Below are positions 7,264 through 51,751 of a DNA stretch of 64,000 nucleotides, in pieces. The notes beneath the pieces are model-generated. The model worked only from the letters and a program-made list of their open reading frames with translations, was not told where the DNA came from and searched no databases. How positions within the stretch are numbered: the stretch's first letter is position 1; each line of letters starts with the position of its first letter. The position numbers and the translations under genes are program-made. The stretch comes from a virus (Duplodnaviria; Caudoviricetes). The stretch is taken from the IMG/VR virus record IMGVR_UViG_2854078061_000001, positions 32,001 through 96,000 of that record; one strand, written 5' to 3'.

Positions 7264-7394
7264 ACTGCTGTGCATCCTTTCTTTCGCACTACTTCCGTTC
7301 ATTTCTGTAATGCGACCGGGACCCCGAAGGGCCCCACGCACTGAGCCTAACGCCTTTTTATAGCCGCTCAGTCGGCTTTTCATAGCGATTGCGA

Positions 7395-31746: not shown

Positions 31747-32763
31747 ATGACAAGATCTCAATATAGAGCCATGCTGAAACAGGATGGAGAGACGCAGCGC
31801 GACAGGGTGGTCAATAAGGCACTCCATGATACGCGCTTTTTAGCGCCAGTCAATCCTTCTTATAAAGAAGTAACGATAGATGACGTACCCCGCTGGGTAA
31901 ATATTATATCATCTACTGTTACAAACCAGAAAATATTCCGCACAAGACCTGGTGAGGATTTTGAGATCGGCAGCATTATGTACTGGGGTAAGAGCCACTG
32001 GCTGATTACAGAACGTGATGCAGACGATGAGATTACCGTGCGCGGCCGCATTCAGATCTGCCAGAAACAAATCGTGTGGCAGGATGACCAGACAAAAAAG
32101 ATCGTATCTCTATGGGCAACTGTGGAAAAGCCGTATTACTCCAACCTGAGTGAGAATAAGGTAATGAGTTATTCAACCCGTGAATTCCGCATTCAAACCC
32201 CGTTCGACGAGTATTCTGCCCGTCTGAACATTGGAAAACGGCTGATGTTGGAGATCGTCAATGGAGAACCAAAGACCTATCGAATCACGTCGATTGACCA
32301 GATGACTGGCCGAATTGACTATGATAATGACCAGATCGGGTTCCTTTCGTTTAACGTTGAACAGGATCTTTACAACGCAGAAACAGACAATGTAGAGAAA
32401 ATGATCTGCAATTATGTGCCGGAAGATGCTTCCGATAACGTGGAAATCACCTATCCTGACGACAACACAGTAGACGACAGAGTGCTTTCGATAGAGTTTA
32501 CGGGCGAACCGTCCATCCCAACGGGCGGATTTGGCAAGCTGTTTACTGCAAAAATCGATGGCGAAGTGTACGACGGCGCAGAATAGACGCTTACCGGCGA
32601 TTGTACTCCTGCTGGAGTATGTTTCAAAGGCGGTAATACGACTACGACAGGTGCAAAGTGTAAGATCACTTGTGTGGATGATTCTAAGCTGATTGGACAA
32701 GTCGTGGTACTGACGGTTAAAGCAGCCGGCCTTACCGAAAAGATCGAATTGGAGGTGATCTGA
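31747..32763 (+). CDS. putative head closure protein with C-terminal Ig-like domain (338 aa; internal TAG 32584)
   Basis: DGAE*TLTG; read-through ends 1 nt before the next ATG and contains its GGAGGT RBS. Confidence 0.7.
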
Positions 32764-36831: not shown

Positions 36832-39800
36832 ATGGCGAGAGAACCAGAATTGAGCATCAAAGTTAAGGTTGACCCGCAAATTGATGCCGCCAAATTACAA
36901 GAAGATATCAATAAAAAAATTCCAAAAGACGGCGTTGAGATCAAGGGCAAACTGGACGTAGACAGTCTTCTAAAGAGTGTTTCTAAATACCAAGAGGGCG
37001 ATCAACATCTTGTGCCTATTATGGCAAAAATCTCGAATGTTGATAAGGCATTGGATGTTTTCAAAGAAAAAGAGACAGAAACAAAAGTCAACTTGAAAGC
37101 GACCCAGGCCAGCCTCGATACGATCAGAGACCAACTGCAAGGTGTAATTGATGGTCTTGATTATTCAAAGCTGGAAGGCGCATCTGCTTCGACCTCTACT
37201 ACTTCTACAAAGCATACAAAAAAGGGCAAAAAGACCACTGCCGTTGATGCAAGTACGGCTGCTAAACAAGAGATTCCTGTTGATGTAGTAGGAACGATTA
37301 GCGACGATAGTGTCACCGCGCTGAAAACTAAGATTGAAGCAGGGCTTAATGACATTGCTATCGTGGCAAATATTGCTCCAGATCAGCTGTCTAAAATACG
37401 GAAAGATGTTGAGGCTGCTTTCAACGGTATTGCGATCACCCCAACTATAAAAGGTGTTAATGGAGCTGCAGCTCAGACCGGCGCAAAGAAAAAGGTCAAT
37501 ATTCCGTCTGATGACAAAATCATGGAGCAGATGGCCAATGCGCAATATACTGCCACAAAGAATGAAAACGCAGAAGCGGCCGCCGTAAAACAAAAGGATA
37601 TTATTTATCAGAATCTGGCCGATCATCAGGCAAAGGCTTCTGAAAATGCTAGTGCTGCCACTGCAAAGACCGCTCAGGGATTGTCTGATGCGAATAAAGC
37701 TATGGGCGATCTGAATGCGTCGGCCGTTGATTTTGAGCAGGACTGGCGGCGAGTCGTTACACTGATTGCTAGTGCGACAAAGAATCTAGCAAATTTAATG
37801 AAGGACAATTATGGAAAGTCTTCTGGTCTTGATATTTTTAGTTCTTTTCAGGAATTTCAAGATGAACTTCCAGACCTTGATACTGAACATGTAAAGCCAT
37901 ATTTAAAAAGTATAAAAGATTGGTCAGATTCTCTACTTGGAAACGCAAGTGGTGATTTTGATTCAAATACTATGATTCAGGCCATCCATATGCTCTCTGG
38001 CCTTGCAGATGCCTGGAATAATATTGATGTATCAAAATTGACAGATAATCAGACAAAAGATAAATTGCTCAAAGAAATGTCTGAGTTGAACAGCATTTTC
38101 CCATCCTCTGGAGACAAACAACCGTTCCTTGGAGAAAAGGATGCCGCTATCAATTATCTGACTGATCTATTGGCAAAAGCAGCAAAGTACTATGCAGAGG
38201 TCGGTAATGCAGCAAAGCAAACAGCTGACAGTATCGCGGTTGCCAATGAGGGTTTTGCGAACCAGACAGCAGAACTGGAAAAGAACAACGCAGAACTTGA
38301 AAAACTGAAGCAAAACGGAGTTACTCCTGTCAAGGAAAGTGCAGTTGATACGCCTTCGATTGCTGAAAAGGTTACATTGAAGCCGGAAGATATTACCCCG
38401 CCAGAGACACCAGTTGAGATTCCCGGGCATGTTACACTGACTGAGAATGATATTACAGTGCCCAAGAGTCCAATTGAGCTAAAATGTAATATTGCCATTG
38501 AGAATAGTGAAACATCTAATGATGAGACTTCGGCAACTAAAACAAAGAAAAAATCTCGTCTTCGTCCTGTTGATTCGAATGATTTAAAGATTCAGCAAGA
38601 GGCTAATAAACTGCTGCAACAGGAAGAGCAGGAGCAGCAAAAAATTGCGATAGCCGCTCAAAAAAAGGCAGATGCTGAAAACAAAGCATTTAATAGAGAA
38701 GTCGCAGCAGAGCAAAAGAAATATAACCAGGCCGAACTTGATAATCTGAAGGAAATCGAATCCATTTATCGAGAGTTAACCAGTCTTGAGAAGCAGCGTG
38801 GCAAATATACAAACCCAGATAAAGCTTTCGACTTAAATCAAGTTGAAGAAGACATTCGCATGGTTGAAGCAGAACTTAGTGAAAAAATGCGTTCAGCAAG
38901 CGAAACTGGTTATAATCCTTTAAAAGTCAAAAGTATTCGAAAACAAGCTCTAAGATATTATCGTGCTCAAGCTAGTTCTGACAATAAGTTTGATATTGCA
39001 AAACAAAATGCAGATACCAAGGCTCAGGAGGAAGCAAAAAAAGCTCTTGATGAAGAAGCTGCAGAACGTGATAAAGTGGCACAAGCTGCGCAGAAGCAAG
39101 CTATTGCAATTCAGAAAGCGAATGAAGCCGCCGCCAAATCTCAACAAAAACAGGATGAGAAGAATGTTGGTAGTGTTATAGATGACATTGTTTCCGAATC
39201 AAATAAGCTGATTCGACTTTATCAGCAGCGTTCAAGTCTAGTTAAACCTGAAGATGTTGCTACTTTAACCGAGGTCGATAATAAAATAAGTGATATTGTT
39301 GACAAGATTAAAATTCTTAAGGACAATTCAATCGCCTCGGGTATTCCCATCAATAATTTCACAGAGGTTGCAAATGCTAACACGCTTGTTGAAAAAGCTA
39401 GAGTAAATAGTTCCACAAATTTTGATAAGAATCAGCAAGCTTATAATCTCACTCAGGCAACTAATGCGATTGAAACCGCTAAAGCAAAATATATCAATGC
39501 GTTTGCCGAAATTCAAAAGAAACGTGAAGAATTAGCGAAAACAGATGACTTGGCGACACAGCAAATGATTCGGAATGCTATTGCTACTCAAAAGGCAATT
39601 ATGAAAGCTTCTGGACACGAAATCAATTCTTATAGCCAACAATATGGCGGATTGGTTGATTCCGCATGGGCTGATGTCGATGTTGTGCGAAACAACAAAC
39701 AGATTCAAGATCAAATTGCATACGAGGCAAAGGTATCAAAGGAAGCTGCTGCAACAAAGAAAGAGAATATTGATTTATTAAACAAATACAATCAAGCTCT

Positions 39801-42372
39801 TAATGAAGAAGTAAAATTATATAAAGATCTTCGTAATGCTGCCCCAGTGGATCAGACAACTAAACAAAATCTTCTGGAAAATCAAAAAGAAAAAGTTGGT
39901 GCTCTTAGAAAAGAGATCCATGACAAAGGGTTAAATTCTTCTCCAGAGTATAAAAAATACACTTCTCAATATCACAATAATATTTCCGGAATAGATTCTG
40001 CAATTTCAAATAGTTCAGATGCCGCTCGTATAAAAGCGAACAACGAAGCAGACGCTGAGGTTCTCAAAAAAATTATCAGTCTATATCAGGAATTAAATAA
40101 GGAATCAACTCATCGTGTAGCGTTATTTAAAGACGAAGATGTCGAAAAATTAAAAGAAACAGATGAGGAAATTCAGCGGCTAACTGACGATATTGAAAAA
40201 TTAGAAGAGGCTGCCAAATACAGTGGGATTGATCTTGCTGGAAATGATGCTTATATGAAAGCATTTGAGAACTCTGACAAAATCCGAGCAGCTAATTCTA
40301 AGCAGTTTAATTCAAATCGTTCCAATTATGTCGAACAACAGACTGATGCCTTGATGGCCGAATATCGTACCCAAGTTAGCCGCATGCAAAATGCCGGTGA
40401 AAAAAGAGAACGTGCTACTGCTGCAAATCTTCCTTGGAAGGCAGAACAGTATAATACTCAGTACGAAGAAGCAGAAACAGCTTTGAAAGCACTCGATGAT
40501 GAATTACAAAATCGTGGCTTACAACTTGAGCAATCTTATTTGGACTTGTTGCATGAAAAAGCTCAGGCAGAAAATGTTGTTAATGAGGCAAAAAGAAAAA
40601 CGTATAAAACAGATGAAGAATCTACCCAAGTCACCAATAAAGAAATTGCAACGCTTGAAAATTACAAGACACAGCTTAGCGGAGTTCTTGGTCGATTGGA
40701 AAAGGCGGGTGCTGGCGATAGTTCTACGTATAAAACAGTAAAGGATTCTTCAAGGGTTCTTGATGATTTTTATGATAGAATGCATTCTCAACTAAACGTT
40801 GACGGAAGCAATAAAGATCAGGTCGCTGTTGAATAGGCCAATGCAAATGGGATTGAATATGTAAAAGATTATAATAGTGCGATCCTTGCTTTGACGGTTT
40901 CATTAAAAGAGTATAAGAGACTAGCTGAGGACCTCTCAACAAGAAACACACTTGAAAATTCTTTCATCAGAGCATCAACGAGAATTTCAAATTTAAAGAG
41001 TGAATTACACGATTACCTGGAAAAATATCCAAAAATCATGCAGAGTGAACTTGCCGGAGATGTTGAAAAGCTTCAGAGTGATTTGGATTCTTCAACGGCA
41101 TGGATGCGTGATAATGAACTCGGTAAGGATCTTGCAAAAATTAAACAAAGGGCAAAAGATCTTGGTCTTGAGGCGCAGAATTTACTTGATATTTTTGAAA
41201 AGCTTTTTGGCCAGCATTTGAGCACTATGATCACTATGGCTGCGTTGCACAAAATGCAAGAAGCTGCACAGAAAATTTATCAAAACGTCGTTGACATCGA
41301 CACTGCAATGACAGAACTACGCAAAGTCACAAGTCTAACTGCAAGCGAATATGAGTCGTTTATGGATCGAGCTGCAGATAATGCTACACAACTAGGCATT
41401 AGTATTAGTGACTTTATCAATAGCACAGCCGATTGGGCGCGTCTTGGTTACACAGAACAGGAAGCTGAGGAACTTGCTCGTGTCAGTAGTCTGATGAAGA
41501 ATGTTGGTGACGGTATTGAATCTGCGAGTGATGCTTCTTCTTACTTAATCTCTGCGATGCAAGGCTTTGGATTGGCTGCCGATCAGGCAAGTGAATTTCT
41601 GGATGTTATGAACCAGATTGCAAACACTGAACCTGTCACTGCAAACGACCTTGGTGTTATTATGCAGAAGTCGGCCGCCGCAATGAATGCTGCTGGTAAT
41701 ACGTATCAGGAGACAATGGCTATGGCAGCCGCTGTTAACGGTGTCCTTCAGGATAACGATACTAGTGGTACATATCTGAAAACTCTGAGTATGTATCTGC
41801 GTGCTGCTAAGACTGATGCTGAATCGGCTGGCATTGAAATTGATGGCATGGCTAATTCTGTATCTGAACTTCGTAGTAAATTAAAATCCCTAACCGGCGT
41901 TGATATTATGTCTGATGCAGCTGGTAAAAACTTTAAGTCTACATATCAGATTATGAAGGAGCTGTCTCAGGTTTGGGGTAATCTTTCTGATGTTACTCAA
42001 GCAAATGTCACTGAACTGATTTCTGGTAAACGCGGAGGTCAAGCAACTTCTGCCCTGCTTAACAACTTTAGTGTCGCAGAAGATGCTATGAAACAAGCAG
42101 CAAATGCTACCGGAAGTGCGCTGGCGGAAAACGCAAAATACCTTGATTCTATTCAAGGTCGTCTTGCACAGTTGGACGCTTCTTTCCAATCTTTGTCTAC
42201 TCATGTTCTCGATTCTGGTATTGTAAAATATACAGTTTCGTTCTTAACAGCCATCGTAAAAATCACAGACAATATCACTAAGCTTTCAGGGGCATTGCCT
42301 CCGATTGCTGCTGCCGTTTCTGGTATTCTGTCTATTATGCAAGCAAACGGCAAACTCCAAAATGGTGCAGGT
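36832..42372 (+). CDS. tail tape measure protein, exon 1 (1847 codons; internal TAG 40834)
   Basis: Long coiled coil, then TP901-type core (IDTAMTELRKV, ADWARLG, GTYLKTLSM, FKSTYQI). Confidence 0.85.
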
Positions 42373-42858
42373 AAAGTTAATATGCCCGTTTATGTTCGTT
42401 GCGTTTAAAGAACATAGGATGCAACACCATATAAAACTAAACACCCCCTAGAGTGCTGGGAAACCCTAAGAGCCATATCGCCTATTGTTATACTTGTATA
42501 ATGTAGGAATCGAAAAATAGAAACAAGGATATGGATGCTATATGCTGAGATAAAAGCTCGGTTTTACCGTATTGTTAAAATGTTGTAACAGTCGAGTGCT
42601 AAGTAGCGTTTACAATGGGCGGTCAGCAGCCGATCCACTCCCCTATTATATAATGTAGGATGGTGGAAGGTTCATCGACTAAAAAGGGTCAGTGAGCAAC
42701 CACTGGAAGGATAGTCAGTTCTGGACGAAAGTTCAGAAGTCCACCTCAGACGTAACCAGACGACTTAAAGAAGTAGGTGGAAACGAGGAGACGCGCCATT
42801 CTCTGGCGCGATATAAGTAGAAGAAAATATTCAAAATTGTAATTCGACATGATTCATA

Positions 42859-42887
42859 TTGACAGCTGACGCACTGGTGGTTATAAT
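42859..42887 (+). promoter_or_regulatory. consensus sigmaA promoter inside the intron
   Basis: TTGACA-17 nt-TATAAT. Confidence 0.85.
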
Positions 42888-42929
42888 GAAAATACAATCG
42901 TATAAACTCATTTTACGGAGGTATTTATC

Positions 42930-43268
42930 ATGCCGAGACCTAAAGGAAGCAAAAACAAGGTTACTATGATTGCAGCGGCTCCTGTCGATTATGCCGCACT
43001 GATTGATGAAAAGCAATCCGCAAAAGATTCGTTGAATGCAGATGTTGCTTCTATCGCGGCTAATATCGATTCTTTGAAGGCTGATCTGAAATCCAAGAAA
43101 GCTGAAATCAAAAAGTTGGATAAAGAGTTGGCTCATCTTGCTAAAAAGAAGGATGAAGCTGACAAGAAAGCTGCCGAGGCCGCTGCTGAAAAGGAAGCCG
43201 TCGATCTTGTAAAGAAGGCGCTGGCAAATGGAACTACTGTTGATGATATTCTTGAGCTTCTGAAATAA
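42930..43268 (+). CDS. AT-hook-like plus coiled-coil protein (intron cargo)
   Basis: MPRPKGSKNK N-terminus; heptad repeats; GGAGGT RBS. Confidence 0.85.
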   Translation: MPRPKGSKNKVTMIAAAPVDYAALIDEKQSAKDSLNADVASIAANIDSLKADLKSKKAEIKKLDKELAHLAKKKDEADKKAAEAAAEKEAVDLVKKALANGTTVDDILELLK

Positions 43269-43295
43269 CTGCTGTACAGCCATCATAATGAACAA

Positions 43296-43331
43296 GCCCG
43301 ACTTCCCTACTACTGGGAGGCCGGGCGTTTT
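43296..43331 (+). terminator. intrinsic terminator inside the intron
   Basis: GCCCGACTTCCC...GGGAGGCCGGGC followed by GTTTT. Confidence 0.65.
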
Positions 43332-43358
43332 GCATTGCTTTTTACGACGGTCTATGAT
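43330..43358 (+). promoter_or_regulatory. sigmaA-type promoter inside the intron
   Basis: TTGCAT-17 nt-TATGAT. Confidence 0.6.
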
Positions 43359-43385
43359 ACACTCTTGTAAAAGGAGTGTTAAATC

Positions 43386-43529
43386 ATGGAAAACAAAAGC
43401 AAAACTTCTGTAAAACATCCAGAAACAAAAAGCAATCAAGAGCATATTCAAAAACGTAATGGAACTTACACATATTCTCCAAAGAATCAAAATCCAGGAA
43501 AGCCTAAAGAAAAAGTCAAACAGAGGTGA
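43386..43529 (+). CDS. small basic protein (47 aa; intron cargo)
   Basis: AAGGAG RBS; MENKSKTSVKHPE... Confidence 0.55.
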   Translation: MENKSKTSVKHPETKSNQEHIQKRNGTYTYSPKNQNPGKPKEKVKQR

Positions 43530-43538
43530 TTAAATGAC

Positions 43539-44120
43539 ATGAAAGAAATTATAGAATTCTTACCAGAACTTTTCGCATATTTTATTCCAGGTGCAATTAC
43601 ATTAACTATTTATAATTTTATATTTCTTAAAAAGCAAGACCACTCTGCTTTTATTTTCTGGGCAATTATAATTAGTTATATTGTAAAGATAGTAGTAGAC
43701 GCTTGTGCCATAACACGATTCAATGGGGCTATTTATGTCGTTATTTGTACGATGCTGCCATTTATTTTGTATGGACTACAGAGAATCGGATTGATTGATC
43801 GACTGTTTTCATATCTCAGACTATCTGATATTCAAAATATTTGGCTTTCAACATTAGATCTTGATGGTTGCAATTACGTCATCGTTTATTTATCTGATGG
43901 TCGTGCGTATTGTGGACTTATCCATCAAGCTGACGATGATTGGCTAATCCTTACTAATTACAATAGTGTCCTAGCAAAAAAAACAGACGAAAACTCAAAA
44001 TCTAAAGATGACGAGCCATGCGACCAGATTCTCTGTATTCCAATGTCAAATATTGAGTGTTTTGAAATGGCTTACGACGATGGCTCTCCAAAAATCAAAG
44101 AATTTTATCCATTTGACTGA
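43539..44120 (+). CDS. membrane protein, DUF6338-like (intron cargo)
   Basis: YFIPG motif; three TM segments; C-terminal Sm-like beta domain (VIVYLSDGRAYCGLI). Confidence 0.75.
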   Translation: MKEIIEFLPELFAYFIPGAITLTIYNFIFLKKQDHSAFIFWAIIISYIVKIVVDACAITRFNGAIYVVICTMLPFILYGLQRIGLIDRLFSYLRLSDIQNIWLSTLDLDGCNYVIVYLSDGRAYCGLIHQADDDWLILTNYNSVLAKKTDENSKSKDDEPCDQILCIPMSNIECFEMAYDDGSPKIKEFYPFD

Positions 44121-44123
44121 ATG

Positions 44124-44164
44124 AAAAACACCTAGAACTGACGAGGTTCCGGGTGTTTTATTTA
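44124..44164. terminator. bidirectional terminator between convergent cargo genes
   Basis: AAAAACACC...GGTGTTTTATTT hairpin. Confidence 0.65.
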
Positions 44165-44186
44165 TGCCATACGAGTTAGACACGTC

Positions 44187-44630
44187 TTACCATTCATACC
44201 CACAATTCTTACACTTGAACTGATGACGCACTTTACTAGAGAAGACACCGAACAGAGCGAACGACACTGCTTTGGATGTACCGGAAATTTTTTCGATATC
44301 AGGTGATCCACAAGTCGGGCACTTTGGAACGTACTTCGGGGTCGGCTTCTTTTCTGGCGGCTTACTCCCCTGCTCTGCGAGATATTTACGAATCTGGGCA
44401 TCTTCTTTGTCAAATTCATCAATCCATTCAGGATGATTCCCTGGTCCATACATTGGTTTATATTCTTTTGGCTGTTTCATTTTCGATAAAATTTCAGCTT
44501 TCCCCTCATCATTCGCTTTTATCCATTTTTTATAATCAGTCAACAAACATCCACAATGGTAACATACAAACTTCGGCCAGTATGCCAATCTTCCGCAATG
44601 CGGACAGACTTCAATTGTTTTGTCATCCAT
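44187..44630 (-). CDS. zinc-ribbon protein (147 aa; intron cargo, antisense)
   Basis: Four CxxC motifs; PKCPTCGS...FKCKNCGYEW; GAGGAG RBS. Confidence 0.8.
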   Translation of the reverse strand: MDDKTIEVCPHCGRLAYWPKFVCYHCGCLLTDYKKWIKANDEGKAEILSKMKQPKEYKPMYGPGNHPEWIDEFDKEDAQIRKYLAEQGSKPPEKKPTPKYVPKCPTCGSPDIEKISGTSKAVSFALFGVFSSKVRHQFKCKNCGYEW

Positions 44631-44656
44631 AAATTCTTTTCTCCTCAAGAAAACCG

Positions 44657-47600
44657 ATATTATCTTTCCTGACAGCTTATTCCGTTGATAAAGACGGCAA
44701 TACTGTTGGTGGATTAAAACAGTTGACATCTTCCGCTAAAAATCTTGTAACACAACTAAAGAAAACTTTCACTACTGTATCTGTTGGCTATAAGAATTTT
44801 AAAGATATGGACGAAGCTGTTCGTGGCAGTGGTTCTTCTTTCTCTGATTATATCAGATGGGCATCAGAAAGTGAAGAGGCAACTGAAGCTTTTGGTCTTG
44901 CAACCTTGTACGCTAAAGCTCGTGTTATTGCACTCAATATGGCCGTAGGTGCTGGCATTGGTTTAGTAGTTTCTTATTTCTCAAAGAAAATTATCGAAGC
45001 AGCGCAACGTACAGATAAACTCGCAGAATCTTCCAAAGAAGCAGCAGATGCTGCAACCAACACAAAAACTTCTTTGAAAGAACTCGCAGATGAATATGAA
45101 AATCTTGGAGATAAATCGACCTAGGACACTGATAGTTATGACAAAGCGAAAGGCATTCAGGAACAAATTCTTCAACTCGCTAAAGATCAGGGTACATTAG
45201 ACGAAGATAAAGTCAACAAAATTGATCTTCAAAATGGTAAATACGAAAATCAACTTGCTGTTTTGAAAAAAATTCGTGAAGAGCAAGTTCGTGCTTCTAC
45301 TGATGACTATGAAGATGATAAGAGAAGGCAAGGCCAGAAATTAGTTAGCGATGCAAAAAGCGCTGTTGACGGTGGCTATGTTTTAACTTCGTCTTTTGAT
45401 CACGATATGGCTGAAGATTTACAGGCTCAAGGTTTCAACCTCTTTAAAGGTATTAGTAATAACTCACTAGTCATCGGTCCCGAAGATCCAAATGATCCTC
45501 AGTCGGTTCTTGACTGGTATGACGATCTTACCGAAGCCTTAAAAGTATTGAGAAAGCAATATTCTGATGCTGACCTTGAAGAGAAAGGTATCTATGAAGG
45601 CTTGTACAATATTCTTTCCGCTCAAAAAGAAGCGTTGGATGATCAGGTTGCTGCTTACAGAAATTCCGCTGATGTTCTGAAGAAGAATAAAGAAGAAGTT
45701 GGTAAATACGATCTTTCTAATGATCTTTCTGCAAGTAAAAACTTCCGTGACAATCCGCAGCCTCTGTCCGATTCTGAAGAAGCCAAAATTGATTCAAAAA
45801 TCCAAAAGACGAAAGAGTATAAGGACGCAGTCGAAGAAGCCCAGGAAACAGAAGCCAAGTGGGAATCTGGCGGTTTCAATAAGTATGGCAACGTTGATAA
45901 TTTCAACCGTGATAAGATTGACTGGACCAAAGAGAATCTCGAAAAGTATAAAGATTTTGTTGCTGAGCAAAACAAATTCAACCCTGGCGAAATAGAAGAA
46001 GGTGGATACTCCACTGTTCTCGGCGTATACGACAATCTTTATAGAGAAAGCCCCGAAATGCCGCTCATGGCTTACACTCCGATGCTTCAGACTGAAGATG
46101 GCCTTGTTCCGCTTACCGAAGATCAGGTGCGCAGCTATATTGAGACTATTGCAGAGAAGTGCTGGACAGAAGATGACACCATTGACCTCGACAAGTTAAT
46201 GAAGCTTGATGCTACCGGACTTGAGCGAGACATCAATGGTGAGATGATTCGTGTCAAAGGCATGATTGCAGGTGTTGAGGGCGGCACTGGTTCTGATGGT
46301 AAAAAGCTCACAAAAGCGGATATCATGGCTATCTCTGGTTCAAGCAATGACGAAATTGCTCAAGAACTGTATGGTGGGGAAATGGGCGATTATTCTGGCA
46401 TGGGCTGGTTGAGTAAATATATTGGTCGTTCTATGCATGACGCTCAGGCTGTTGCCCAAGAAGGTAAGGATAATATTGAATCGATATATGACAGTCTATA
46501 TGATAACCTTGCATATGGGAACGATATTACCACTAAGAATCAACTCTCAAATGATTTACAAGGTGCTTTTGATGATATTGCCGAATCTCTTGGTAAAGAC
46601 TCTCGTGCAATGACAGTATCTGATGTTGTTGGTCTTACTGCCGATGATGTAGAATTAACTGACGAACAGGCCGCAGCTATCAATACTCTTACAGAGGCAG
46701 CCACGAAATACAAGACTTCTATTCAGGGTGTGGCTGAAGCTGGCGAAGAAAATGGTATGTTTGGTGGTATCGAAAATGCCGTAAATGGCGTATCGTCTGC
46801 TATTCAACAGATGGAAACCATCTCTCAGAATATAGACAACATCCAATCTGCATATAAGGCTTGCACAACCGCTATGGACGAATATAACAAGTATGGTTAT
46901 ATGAGTGCAGACGCTTTGCAGGGTCTCTTGAGCATGAATGACGAGTATCTTGCATGTCTGGATGTTGTAGATGGAAAGTTAAAGATCAACAACGAACGTT
47001 ATGCTGATCTAATTGTTGCGCAGTATACCGAAGCTGAGGCAACCGCAATCGATCAAGCCATGAACGAACTCAATGCGCTTCAAAAGGAAGATGCTAAGAA
47101 GAAAACCGAGGATTTAACGACCGCCACCGAAGAGCAGCAGACCGCCCTTGAAAATGCCGTACCCGCTATCCAAAATGCAACAACCGCTACCGGTGACTTA
47201 GCTATCGCTCTGGCGACCGCACAAGGAGCAGCCGAAGGCGATGACGCAATGCAGGCGAAAATTGACACAATAACAGCCGCATTGAATACTCGTCTGACCG
47301 CTATTCATAGTAATATGCAGACTGCTATTAAAGGCGGAAAAGAGCTTAAAAACCAACTTAATGGATTTAACAAAACAAATAAAGGATCAAGCTCCAAGTC
47401 TGTAACAGATGCTGCATCCGCATTCGATACACTGACAAAAGCCATGAAGGAATATAACCAGTATGGCTATATCACTGTCGAAACCATGAAGTCTCTTATG
47501 ACTTTGGAAGATAAATTTACGTCTTGCTTAGTAAAAAATGGAGACCATTTAGAAATCAATGCAAATGCGTTTAGAAAGTTAGTAGAAAATCAATTAAAGG

Positions 47601-50600
47601 AAGAAGAGGCGAACGGGAAAGCGTCTAAGAAGGCAACCGAATTGTCTCGAATCCTTTCGTATTTGGATAAAAATGTTCACTCTTCTACAATTACATTTGA
47701 ACAGCTTACGGATGCGATTAAAGGATATGGTTCTGCTCTTTCTGATGCTAAAGCTGTAACAGATGACTTTAAGGGTGTTTGGGACAACGGAAAAGTAGTC
47801 AAGGAAAAGACAAAAAAGAGCCGTACTGGTGCTCTGGATTATGAAGGCACTGAAGCTCAAAGTGCCGCGCTGCAATCCATTAAAAAGTATAGTGAATATG
47901 ATCCGGATCTGATCAATAAAGCCTACAATAAAGATACTGGTAAAATCGACCTAAGTGGTGATGTGTTAAAGGATGCAGTCGTTAAATCTTTGGAACAACA
48001 GGCAAAAGCCGCCAGAGATGAGAACAACGCGGCTGCCAATGCAATTGCTGATAGTTATGAAACTGCTGCCAATAATATCAAGAACAACGTTATTTCTGTT
48101 CAAGACTACTTCGACGGACTGGGTTCTACGGTTGAAGAGTTTAGCTCCAAGATCGACGATATGCAGAACGCATGGACCGATTTGAGCGATGTCACAAACG
48201 AGTATAACACTTACGGCGGTTTGAGCATTGACAGTATTCAGAAACTGCTTACAATGTCTCCCGAGTATCTGCAGTTCCTCAAATTGGAGGGCAACCAGCT
48301 CGTCTTTAATAAAGAAGCGATGCTGGCAAAAACCAAGGCCGACATTCTGGCAAAGGCTGCAGAGCTCGAACTAAAAGATGAGACCAAAGATCAAGCAGAG
48401 ATTCTACGTGCGTTGGCGGATTCTCTTGATAAGGGCGCAGATTCGATGGAGGGCATGGGCAAATCGGCTGACAAGCTGAAGACCCTGATGTCCCAACTGA
48501 ACACTGTTTTGAATTCTTTTATCGGTGTTTTTGATGACTTGAACGACAAACAGTCCAACGACCTCAAGATTCAGGGTGAAGCTTGGATCGATGTTATTGA
48601 CAAGCGTATTGACGCACTCAATGAAGAAAACGATGCACAGGAGCGATCAATCGAACTGGCAAAACTTCAGGATGAATACGAGCGTGCAAAGGCCAATAAG
48701 ACTGTTCATGTATATGGCGGCAGAGGTCAAGGTTTTGTATGGAAAGCAGATGAAAATGCCGTTCGTGAAGCTGGGAAAAACCTATCTGACAAGCAGCGTG
48801 AATATAAGAAGAAAGATGAAATTGACAAGCTGGAAAAGCTCAAAGATAAAGTTCAGGAAACCAATAATCTTATTGGCACCAGCTGGGATGATTATCAGAA
48901 GAAGCTGAAATACACAGCCGAGTTCGAGGCTATGACATTTGAGCAGATGGAAGGTCACTATGACGGTTTCAAGAGTAGTGTCCTTAACAATATGCAGGCC
49001 ATTCAGGGCGCGACAAACGTCAAGAATGTTATCACTGATATTTCCAATTTGATCTCTACTTTGGAGACACTGGCGAATATTTTGAACATTCTTAATGGCG
49101 GAAGTGGTGACGGCGGCGGAGTCTTTGGCTTCATCAACCAAATCAAGAACATGTTCACTGGCGAAAACGGTGATTTTGATCTGGGTGGTGGCTTTAAGAA
49201 GATGTTCGATGGAGCTGCTAAGGTGGTTTCTGACGGTTGGAACTGGATCACTGGTAAGAACAGGGCTGGTTCTGCCGCACTAAAATCAGACACCACTGCG
49301 ACATTGGATATCCTTGGCAACACAATAAAGGTGAATACCGGCGATATTCAGCGTGTATCTGGTGGATTCTTTGAGAGACTAGTTGGTGCTGCGAAAGACA
49401 ATCTTGGCAGTATCGGTAAGTTCTTCTCAGGTGCATAGACATCTATCTCTGAGAAAACCGGATTGATGTTTACTGATATTGGCTCGTTCTTCACAGAAGG
49501 ATTTGGCCTGTTGAACAGTCAGACAGGACTTGGTCTTGGTGGCATTGTTGAGACCGTCGGAAGTATGTTTGGCCCAATTGCGGCTGGAGCACAGTCTATC
49601 GGTAGTGCCATCTCGTCTGGCGTTGTAAGCTTCTTCCCTTCTATCTTCGCCGGACTTGGTACTCTGGTGACTAGCGTTGGCAGTGCAATGGCCGCTATGA
49701 TGCAAGCGATTGCTGCTGCTCTTTCTTCCATTCCTATCGCTGGTTGGATTGCTGCCGCCGCAGCTGTTGCAGGTGCAGTTGCTCTAATTGCTACGATTGC
49801 TTCGATTGCAAGTAATGTTTCCAATACACAGGTTGATGAACCTACTCCCGCATTCCAAGCAAAGAAATATGCAAAGGGTACTCGTGGCGTTAAGAAGAGC
49901 CAGATTGCAAACGTTGATGAAAAGGGCGAAGAGCTGATTGTTCGTAACCCAGACCAGGGACGCATGACCTACCTTGAAAAGGGCGACGGTGTTATTCCTG
50001 CAAAGGAAACCGACAACCTGATGGCGATTGGCGCTGACCCCGAGGGCTGGCTGGCAAAGGGCTTGGCCGAAGTGACTGGTAGTGCCGCAGCCGGTGCCGG
50101 TATGAGTGCCCAAGGTCCGAGCGCTCAGTTGAGTGGTGCTGCAGCTGCCGCAGCCGCTGGCGTTGGTTCGATTTTCAAGAGCGAGTATGACGAGATCCTT
50201 GGCGATACAACTGAGTTTATGTCTGGACTCTCTGACATCTTCAAGAAGAGTGATAATCCGATTATTGCCGCCGTTCAAAGCATGATTTATATGGCCACTA
50301 AGACTGTATATCGTATGTCTACGGTCGGTAAGATTAACTCTTCTAAGACAGTGACAGAATCCACCAGCAACACAAAGAAGGCGACCCAGAGCCAAATTTC
50401 GTCTATGACGAGCAACTTTGAGTCTAGCTGGAAATCTGTGGCTGGCGAGCTCGGTCTGGACACAAAGGATATTGAAGAAACCAGCAAAAAGATGTCTGAG
50501 AAGATGAATGAGCTGGTGAACAACACCTTTGATGCGCTGAACGAAAACACCGGCCTTAGCGCCGAGCAGGTTGAAGATGTCACCAACACGATGTTCGATT

Positions 50601-51751
50601 CGCTGCAAAAGATTTATACCAGCGGATGGAACAGCCTTGCTTCCACTTCCGGCGACATGTCTAAAGAGATTGCGGATAAGCTGAATGCGTCTTATAAGTC
50701 TTCTGTTGATAGCACAAATAAGGCCATGAACGAGATCTCCAAGGCATTCGGTCACAGCTGGAGTAAGGTTGGTGGCGGTGTAAAAACCCTGAGCACCAAT
50801 GTTCAAAAGACAATGGAGCAGGCATGGGCTGACACCAGCCAAGACACCCAGAAGCTGATGTACGATATGCGTGCGTGCTTTGACAATAGTTGGAGCATGA
50901 ATGAGGCTGGTGTAACTCATCTGGCAGACATGACTGAGCAGACCATTGGCGGTGCTTATGACGAGATCACCTCTGATGCCGCAAATACGTTTGGTAATGG
51001 CGGTTCTCTGTCCACTGAGACAGACAACGCATGGGCGAATGTTGAGCCTGGCGCAAAGGACATTAACACCAATCTGACATGGATGATGGACCAGTCTTAC
51101 AACGCCATCAAGGCTGGATGCGAAGCTGCCGTTACATCGATTAAAAACGATTTGGCGACCACAGGCGATGCATTTGAAGCTGTTGGTAAGAAGGCTGCTG
51201 ATACTTCTGCCGCAATCAGTGAAGCAAGTCAGAAAGCACAACAGAGCACACAGCAGAATACCGGTCCAAGCAAGGGCGTGACTGCCGCTGCTGGTGCGGG
51301 CATCGGCGCTGCCGTTGGTTCATTCCTTGGGCCTCTGGGTGCAATTGGCGGTGCTGCAATTGGCGGTTTCTTTGGCAGTCTGTTTGGCCATGCAAATGGT
51401 CTGAAGTCTGCTAAGTTCCCTCACATGGCTAATGTTGATGAGCAGGGTCCTGAGATGTTGGTTCGTAAGCCGGATTCCGGTCGGTATACTTATCTTGAGA
51501 CTGGCGATGGTGTTGTCCCTGCCGATATCACCTCTCGCCTATTCGAGATGGGCGGCAACCCGGATGCATGGTTCCAGAAGCAGATGACAAAGTACGGTTC
51601 TCAGCCGATTGTTCAGGGCGGCGGTGGAGATGTTACAACTTCGATTGGCGATATTATTATCACAAATCCCGTTGGCAGCTCTGATGCTCTGGCAAATGAA
51701 ATCAAACAGAAGTTACCGACTAAGGTTGCTCAAATGCAAAGTAAGCGGTAA
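44657..51751 (+). CDS. tail tape measure protein, exon 2 (2364 aa; internal TAG 45122 and 49436)
   Basis: One frame from 44657 to TAA 51751 apart from two TAGs; EYNxYG repeats, hydrophobic segments, AxG...NVDExGxE C-terminal motifs. Confidence 0.85.

Follow-up and report, generated by a model that had tools for sequence, protein, structure and literature searches.

In the 64,000-nt stretch of phage DNA analysed here (the window: positions 32,001 to 96,000 of IMG/VR virus record IMGVR_UViG_2854078061_000001, Caudoviricetes), the tape-measure gene of a large gut phage is very probably interrupted at positions 42373 to 44656 by a cis-splicing group I intron, which has a mosaic accessory cargo and no homing endonuclease. 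We put the probability of this reading at roughly 85%. The source record is 108 kb long, is classed as a provirus, and is by estimate ~73% complete. Group I introns are usually viewed as selfish elements that carry a homing endonuclease or a transposon (as in IStrons), or that decay. Here the ribozyme appears to be strongly constrained across a clade of abundant gut phages while carrying independently transcribed accessory genes inside an essential structural gene.

The two proposed borders are tied together by complementary sequences. Position 42372 closes a codon and 44657 opens one, so that joining the exons would give an in-frame product reading ...QNGAG/ILSFLTAYSVDK. The end of exon 1 pairs with an internal guide at five of six positions (paired region P1, with one A.C mismatch), which places U42372.G42384 at the 5' splice site. 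The 11-nt loop of this helix serves as the guide for P10: AAAGTTAATAT (42373-42383) is complementary at 10 of 11 positions to ATATTATCTTT (44657-44667), the sequence that follows a terminal G at 44656. A preliminary description, made from the letters of the window, had named this 5' splice site with its U.G pair, the P10 pairing, the terminal G, and the in-frame join, and all of these were confirmed on the sequence. In 15 sequences, the U.G pair of P1 and the two G-C pairs next to it are invariant, and the outer pairs are compensated by lineage: exons ending in GCGGGU have the guide GCCCUC, and those ending in GC[A/U]GGU have GCCCG[U/C], with at least five of six pairs kept in each. Among the relatives, 9.5 to 11 of the 11 P10 positions are complementary to intron positions 1 to 11 in 16 distinct junction combinations, and the terminal G precedes exon 2 in all 16. 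Exon 2 always begins with ATATTA[A/T]CTTT or a wobble-compatible variant of it; its first 11 to 14 nt are at least 90% conserved, after which conservation falls to 30% to 70%.

Translation continuing from exon 1 would meet a stop codon 12 codons into the intron; this stop is kept in every relative, and the apparent amino-acid changes in that stretch track P2 pairing, not protein conservation. The preliminary description had counted two separately translated tape-measure proteins, each with its own start and stop, among the outcomes that would speak against splicing; a ribosome-binding site followed by an in-frame start was found at none of the 39 distinct junctions of relatives.

The same arrangement recurs widely. 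An IMG/VR scan that used the end of exon 1 as its query confirmed 196 relatives. Of the 80 that were retained, 75 have the same interruption at the exon-1 locus, after the same GGT codon, with an almost invariant intron start. An exact 20-nt ribozyme motif identified at least 115 further stretches, one per contig, and the 5' junction was the same in 72/72 of those with enough flank. The arrangement is present in more than 100 contigs of 70 to 150 kb, and the element, which is single-copy, was at this one tape-measure site in every case. Every relative examined has an insert at this site, and only the distant PMBT24 group is without one; across these contigs, the intron appears to be fixed at one site in the phage clade. 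Identity to the window is 64% to 69% in exon 1 and 56% to 66% in exon 2, whereas it reaches 87% to 92% in the first 260 nt of the ribozyme and 95% to 97% in the part spanning P7 to P9.2. In every relative examined, the motifs of the junction are again present at this site, which makes them more than chance matches.

The catalytic core is likewise recognizable. It had previously been placed within 42440-42760; the core is real, though wider, extending over ~42373-42810. A search with group I models, which the preliminary description had suggested as a check, aligned RF00028 over its full length (model positions 1-253) to 42388-42737 when the 470-nt 5' part was searched alone (24.5 bits, E 3.1e-4, below the curated cut-off), and the whole 108-kb record gave the same single match (E 1.7e-5). 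Landmarks of the core include P4 (UGCUGG/UCAGCA) followed by GCC, the joining region J6/7 (GUUCA), P7 (GACUA/UAGUC) with a bulged C, J8/7 (GAAGGA), and P8. The canonical motifs GUUCA-xCGACUA and GGAUAGUC are present, as is a GAAA L9 loop, and the fold z-score of the core is -3.1. A P1-P9.2 structure was drawn by hand following the RF00028 alignment, and its pairs were counted on 15 relatives; the P6b helix of this drawing is mis-registered and is to be disregarded. In this structure, 94.8% of cells pair, compared with 36% to 43% when partners are slid by 1 to 3 columns. Fourteen pairs have changes on both sides, a number reached by 0/500 shuffles, but the aligned sequences are close relatives, so these shuffle statistics overstate independence. 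The compensatory changes fall in P2, three helices of the P5 extension, P6a, and P8. A group II intron was also considered, and neither an Rfam match at E up to 10 nor a reverse transcriptase domain was found. Evidence for group I identity comes from the RF00028 alignment, the P7 bulge, the J8/7 and J6/7 motifs, the compensatory changes, and the conservation, and the element has the structure that defines a group I intron in all but its curated Rfam score.

The sequences on either side of the insert appear to belong to a single gene. The ORFs (open reading frames) called at 36832-40836, 40891-42408, 44657-45124, 45263-49438, and 49463-51751 amount to two reading frames that are broken by single TAG codons only, and the exon 1 counterpart in relative L001 is a single ORF. 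Proteins of relatives that start at the exon 2 start are 1573 to 1796 aa long. The tape measure of Enterocloster phage PMBT24 is contiguous (1508 aa); its residues 36-444 align to exon 1 and its residues 789-1315 to the ORF beyond exon 2, and the local alignment crosses the proposed junction and passes through exon 2, collinear with exon 1, exon 2, and the next ORF. Because of this collinearity and the alignment across the junction, we conclude that the pieces are probably one gene of ~4,200 codons interrupted at 42373-44656, and the assignment of exon 1 and exon 2 to one tape-measure gene, not two, is thus supported. The gene is far larger than the preliminary description had assumed, spanning 36832-42372 plus 44657-51751 with three in-frame TAG codons. 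Owing to the intron and these TAG codons, one tape-measure gene is called as four or five ORFs.

Several observations weigh against the intron interpretation. The RF00028 score of 24.5 bits lies below the curated gathering cut-off of 50, a whole-window Rfam scan at the gathering threshold gave no group I match (only a Pistol ribozyme elsewhere), and an Rfam scan of 3.2 kb at E up to 10 gave none either; the low RF00028 score is explained by the P5 extension, in which ~150 nt are inserted relative to the model. P3, P4, P5, P7, and both P10 arms are invariant and thus supply no covariation evidence. An empty site was not found in any close relative, so there is no intron-less allele to fix the exon junction, and a search with exon 2 for longer proteins returned only proteins starting at exon 2, none of them intron-less. 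On its way from the core to the 3' splice site, late transcription has to cross two terminator-like hairpins and an antisense gene. Three relatives have additional copies of the 3' junction motif inside the intron, and these might act as rival splice sites. A stem proposed to close the cargo loop shows no covariation, and its cognate duplexes (-9.3 kcal/mol) are no better than non-cognate ones (-8.9 kcal/mol).

Some of these features could be accommodated by a split intron, in which one RNA, made of exon 1 and the ribozyme, ends at an internal terminator and is joined in trans to a second RNA, made of the intron tail and exon 2, through P10 and the purine and pyrimidine tracts. We consider this unlikely, and we know of no natural trans-splicing group I intron in bacteria or phages, which counts against it as well. 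The position of the whole core 5' of the cargo fits such a split, as do the two terminator-like hairpins and the strong internal promoter between the core and the 3' splice site, the unusual length of P10 (11 nt), and the possibility that the purine and pyrimidine tracts pair. However, a convincing + strand promoter was not found close upstream of the 3' splice site, the long-range tracts lack covariation, and IStrons with cargo in the same position splice in cis (PMC4227781). Very unlikely, in our judgement, is a decayed intron whose ribozyme no longer splices, leaving the tape measure as two polypeptides or the prophage defective. The sub-threshold RF00028 score, the missing homing endonuclease, and the provirus status of a record with 73% estimated completeness would fit a relic, yet the ribozyme is conserved far above the exons, with compensatory changes that preserve its helices; no relative has lost the terminal G, the P10 target, or the reading frame; exon 2 has no translation start; and the arrangement occurs in more than 100 contigs of 70 to 150 kb. 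Together, the shared insertion site, the conserved ribozyme, the P1 compensation, the junction motifs, the conserved stop codon, and the absence of an exon 2 start make a live ribozyme much likelier than a relic.

It is also conceivable, though highly improbable, that the segment is a DNA insertion bounded by 11-bp inverted repeats (AAAGTTAATAT ... ATATTAACTTT), that is, a transposon-like or cassette element unrelated to RNA splicing. At the DNA level the P10 arms are indeed inverted repeats, and since both are invariant, pairing between them as RNA is unproven; moreover, inner copies of the right-hand motif go with tandem antisense cassettes. However, the segment lacks any transposase or recombinase, and its right arm is exon 2 coding sequence. 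It also encloses a full group I core, with a U.G pair at its left border and a terminal G at its right, and is single-copy and always at one site.

For a cis-splicing intron, we infer the following course of events from the sequence. The catalytic core (P1-P9.2), at the 5' end of the intron, would fold first, with the cargo placed after P9.2, the position held by the insertion sequence (IS) element in IStrons. Late transcription is assumed to read through the cargo, including its two internal terminators, while the stop codon 12 codons into the intron would keep ribosomes out of the core. An exogenous G would attack after U42372, and the distant 3' splice site would be picked and docked through the unusually long P10 (11 nt) and the terminal G44656, the outcome being one in-frame tape-measure mRNA of ~4,200 codons. 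The purine tracts that flank P9.2 (42785..42827) and the pyrimidine tract UUUUCUCCUC are candidates for the 5' and 3' arms, respectively, of a long-range stem that would close the cargo loop; that they pair near the 3' splice site in the manner of the IStron inverted-repeat stem is a guess, and on the other strand UUUUCUCCUC is the Shine-Dalgarno sequence of the antisense gene. The independently transcribed accessory genes, flanked by the conserved ribozyme and the 3' junction motif, would be exchanged between phages by recombination. Two public oligo-dT RNA runs labelled 'root metagenome' have contigs that cover only 43257-44222 of the cargo and reach neither splice site, and these are uninformative on splicing, expression, and habitat.

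Table 1 Features of the interrupted tape-measure gene, the ribozyme, and the cargo (window coordinates)
Feature	Position	Strand	Details
Tape-measure exon 1	36832..42372	+	frame continuous with TAG read through
In-frame TAG, exon 1	40834-40836		single
PhageMin_Tail domain	~41380-42012		exon 1; PF10145, E 2.9e-25, in ORF 40891-42408
Group I intron (probable)	42373..44656	+	2284 nt
Ribozyme core	42373..42810	+	P1-P9.2, ~440 nt, at intron 5' end
P1	42367..42389	+	exon GCAGGU 42367-42372 with guide GCCCGU 42384-42389
P2	42391-97/42410-16
In-frame TAA	42406..42408	+	12 codons into intron, P2 loop
P3	42446-49/42685-88
P4	42454-59/42623-28
P5	42464-66/42617-19
P5 extension	42473-42607		large
P6/P6a	42630-38/42663-70
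P7	42675, 42677-81/42712-17		C42676 bulged
P8	42690-94/42701-05
P9	42719-26/42731-38		GAAA loop
P9.1	42741-46/42775-80
P9.2	42792-98/42804-10
Purine tracts	42785-91 and 42819-27	+	GAGGAGA and AGAAGAAAA; flank P9.2; complementary to 44637-44646
Sigma-70-type promoter	42859..42887	+	TTGACA, 17 nt, TATAAT; 12/12 consensus; for AT-hook gene
AT-hook-like coiled-coil gene	42930..43268	+	112 aa; in 64/64 distinct introns
Terminator-like hairpin and U-rich tail	43296..43343	+	hairpin 43296-43326; -23.5 kcal/mol, z -3.7
Small basic peptide	43386..43529	+	47 aa; matches no family
Membrane protein	43539..44120	+	193 aa; in 49/64 introns
Bidirectional terminator-like hairpin	44128..44157	.	z -4.2 on both strands; between convergent genes
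Antisense double zinc-ribbon gene	44187..44630	-	147 aa; in 64/64 distinct introns
Intron 3' end	44637..44656	+	pyrimidine tract UUUUCUCCUC, spacer, terminal G44656
P10 target	44657..44667	+	first 11 nt of exon 2
Promoter-like site for antisense gene	44847..44875	-	TTCACT, 17 nt, TG-TATAAT; 10/12; inside exon 2; consensus match only
Tape-measure exon 2	44657..51751	+	in-frame TAG codons 45122 and 49436

In the window, ~1.85 kb of cargo lies downstream of P9.2, and intron length in the relatives ranges from 1880 to 6114 nt. The four genes listed in the preliminary description are all present (Table 1), and the promoters and terminators it attributed to them were found in part: the promoter of the AT-hook gene and the two hairpins, which have U tracts, lie in the cargo, whereas the antisense gene has its promoter-like site outside the intron, in exon 2. 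The promoter region of the AT-hook gene is nearly identical in L001. Family searches with the AT-hook protein returned coiled-coil noise only, and the small basic peptide is about as frequent as the membrane protein among the 64 distinct introns. The membrane protein had been called DUF6338-like. The gene is there, and the label has weak leads only, namely Atlas feature scores of 0.93 to 0.94 to clusters in which 26% to 31% of members carry DUF6338, and a Pfam E value of 0.1 for a relative's membrane protein against PF19865; it is possibly related to that family. The zinc-ribbon protein has eight invariant Cys in two ribbons and occurs as many alleles with 32% to 55% identity. Its AlphaFold model (mean predicted local distance difference test score, pLDDT, 77) matched only generic zinc ribbons at E > 0.5 in a fold search, with no nuclease match.

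The absence of homing endonuclease and transposase motifs noted earlier held in profile searches of the four window proteins and 12 cargo proteins of relatives. No HNH, GIY-YIG, LAGLIDADG, His-Cys box, or PD-(D/E)XK family scored in Pfam, PHROGs, PADLOC, or NCBIfam, and the same libraries gave no Y1 transposase, serine recombinase, or RuvC-bearing TnpB; the one signal was a sub-threshold zinc-ribbon match to PF07282 (18.7 to 18.9 bits versus a cut-off of 26.3). Extra cargo in the relatives includes genes with a SocA/Panacea antitoxin domain, one of which is followed by a small partner; a protein with both DUF3800 and a match to PDC-M04A, a PADLOC candidate; a retropepsin-like (aspartic) protease; and several genes without a known family. 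An accessory or defence role of the cargo is suggested by these kinds of genes in relatives (Panacea, DUF3800/PDC-M04A).

Comparison of the cargo at the same site across the 64 distinct introns agrees with the earlier view of the intron as a cargo vehicle: cargo size and insert length vary, and gene content is mosaic and independent of exon relatedness. For example, a phage with 98.5% identity in exon 1 has an AT-hook allele that is 63% identical, and phages whose exons are 67% identical have alleles that are 93% to 94% identical. Since the AT-hook alleles do not track exon relatedness, the cargo has probably been reshuffled by recombination. At least two alleles of the AT-hook gene (339 and 333 nt, ~63% identical) occur in this intron and in a second type of insert described below (window, L004, L011, L024, L036, L062, and L001). 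In 3/64 introns, two or three antisense zinc-ribbon genes with different alleles stand in tandem (L036:14352 and 14845; L052:13684, 14151, and 14631; L056:7008 and 7501), each with its own copy of 'CTCCTC, spacer, G, ATATTAACTTT', a motif that elsewhere identifies the 3' splice site. The inner copies of this junction motif could be decoys for splicing, or they may be left over from the stacking of cassettes.

The closest known layout is that of the IStrons CdISt1 of Clostridioides difficile and BcISt1 of Bacillus cereus, which splice in vivo (Tourasse et al. 2014, PMC4227781). As in these elements, the ribozyme stands at the 5' end, ~1.5 to 2 kb of coding cargo follow P9.2, and the 3' splice site is far from the core (PMC4227781); IStrons, too, lie inside protein-coding genes, those of Firmicutes. 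Inverted-repeat motifs close the cargo loop of IStrons (PMC4227781), whereas the corresponding stem of the phage intron lacks covariation support. IStrons carry a forward-strand transposase pair of the IS200/IS605 or IS607 kind as their cargo, whereas the phage intron has no transposase, and its genes have their own promoters and terminators, with one antisense. The IStron ribozyme is IA2-like with P7.1 and P7.2, but the phage core has only AAA (42682-42684) between P7 and the 3' strand of P3 and therefore no room for either helix. IStrons are also multi-copy and mobile, unlike the single-copy phage intron at its one site. With no transposase, no P7.1 or P7.2, and a single copy at one site, the element is not an IStron, and with neither an endonuclease family nor a patchy presence, it is not a homing-endonuclease intron.

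In the nrdD (sunY) intron of phage T4, the catalytic core is reportedly far from the 3' splice junction as well, with the core at the 5' end, a long coding insert ahead of the 3' splice site, and a distant 3' end that is recognised by short pairings. That insert is said to be a single sense ORF of endonuclease type, whereas the phage intron described here has at least four unrelated genes, which come with promoters and terminators and include an antisense one. Group I introns have been found in capsid and tail genes of Cluster J mycobacteriophages (PMC3706429) and in the terminase genes of LL-H and Moonbeam (PMC4299906). These share the placement in a late, essential virion gene of a tailed phage, but they have no ORF or a homing endonuclease, are not reported to contain a multi-gene accessory island, and are not described in a tape-measure gene. 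The cargo resembles the moron and defence hotspots of temperate phages, with mosaic accessory genes bounded by promoters and terminators, including genes of toxin-antitoxin type (Panacea) and candidate defence genes (DUF3800/PDC-M04A) in relatives. However, known hotspots lie between genes, and an island inside an essential gene would be harmless only through RNA splicing. In the literature we found neither a group I intron whose cargo is a multi-gene accessory island complete with promoters, terminators, and an antisense gene nor one located in a tape-measure gene.

If splicing occurs as proposed, this locus would provide a site that accommodates moron- or defence-type cargo and that ordinary gene callers mistake for a broken tape-measure gene. 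It would be a natural design by which an open reading frame accepts several kilobases and stays intact. It would also offer a testable link between RNA splicing, lysogeny, and cassette exchange. A possible, though rather doubtful, extension is that the intron is a gene-cassette platform in which the ribozyme on the left and a leader of ribosome-binding site, G, and P10 target on the right, both conserved, serve as the fixed arms for recombination. Cassettes of accessory, toxin-antitoxin, and zinc-ribbon genes would then be swapped and stacked among co-infecting phages and expressed in the prophage from their own promoters, and splicing would restore the tape measure only in lytic growth. In such a platform, splicing may additionally be switched by antisense transcription that crosses the 3' splice site.

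A second, unrelated-looking structured insert of ~400 nt follows the homologous GGT in several relatives (L001:5061-5500 and L078:8718-9110, as well as L076, L080, L081, and L082). It has a group-I-like P1 (GCUGGGU/GCCCAGC with U.G) and the same kind of cargo, consisting of a promoter, an AT-hook gene, a Panacea pair, and an antisense zinc-ribbon gene, and it gave no Rfam match. L001 had been considered as an uninterrupted allele across the junction (GAG-IATF...); re-alignment places its own insert, with this P1, after the homologous GGT. Candidates for the 3' splice site of this insert type were rejected, the only long complementarities being chance matches inside coding sequence.

Other variation is found within the ribozyme. 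In L035 (9005-9408), and also in L027, L059, L060, L064, L065, L068, and L069, a 404-nt insert takes the place of the P6a/b hairpin, and the core continues beyond it. The minus strand of this insert encodes a hydrophobic peptide of ~32 aa behind a strong GGAGG site, resembling a type I toxin, and the insert had no Rfam match. Immediately 5' of P1, exon AUGGUG (42362-42367) can pair with intron CACCAU (42425-42430); this helix of 6 to 7 bp, which RNAalifold predicts, is invariant in 15 relatives and may be an alternative that competes with or extends P1.

The ribozyme motif was also searched for in 185,579 species-representative genomes, giving seven exact matches, of which one is real and belongs to a Faecalibacterium sp. 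metagenome-assembled genome (MAG). The six others lack the junction motif, and ~4 matches are expected by chance. Contig CAAHET010000214.1 of this MAG (L206) is the only genome sequence among them with the ribozyme plus the tape-measure junction. This points to Faecalibacterium as a host, on the binning evidence of a single MAG.

In-frame TAG codons are not restricted to the tape-measure gene; they also occur in ~13 other late genes on the + strand, and many late genes have exactly one. The codon aligned to TAG 45122 is TGG in 54/64 relative matches, where the relatives' proteins have W, and the codon aligned to TAG 40834 is TGG in 2/10. None of the six tRNAs of the 108-kb record has a CUA anticodon. 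The Pistol ribozyme found elsewhere in the window (7311-7377, - strand) is a full-length match that scores 66.5 bits against an Rfam cut-off of 34.5.

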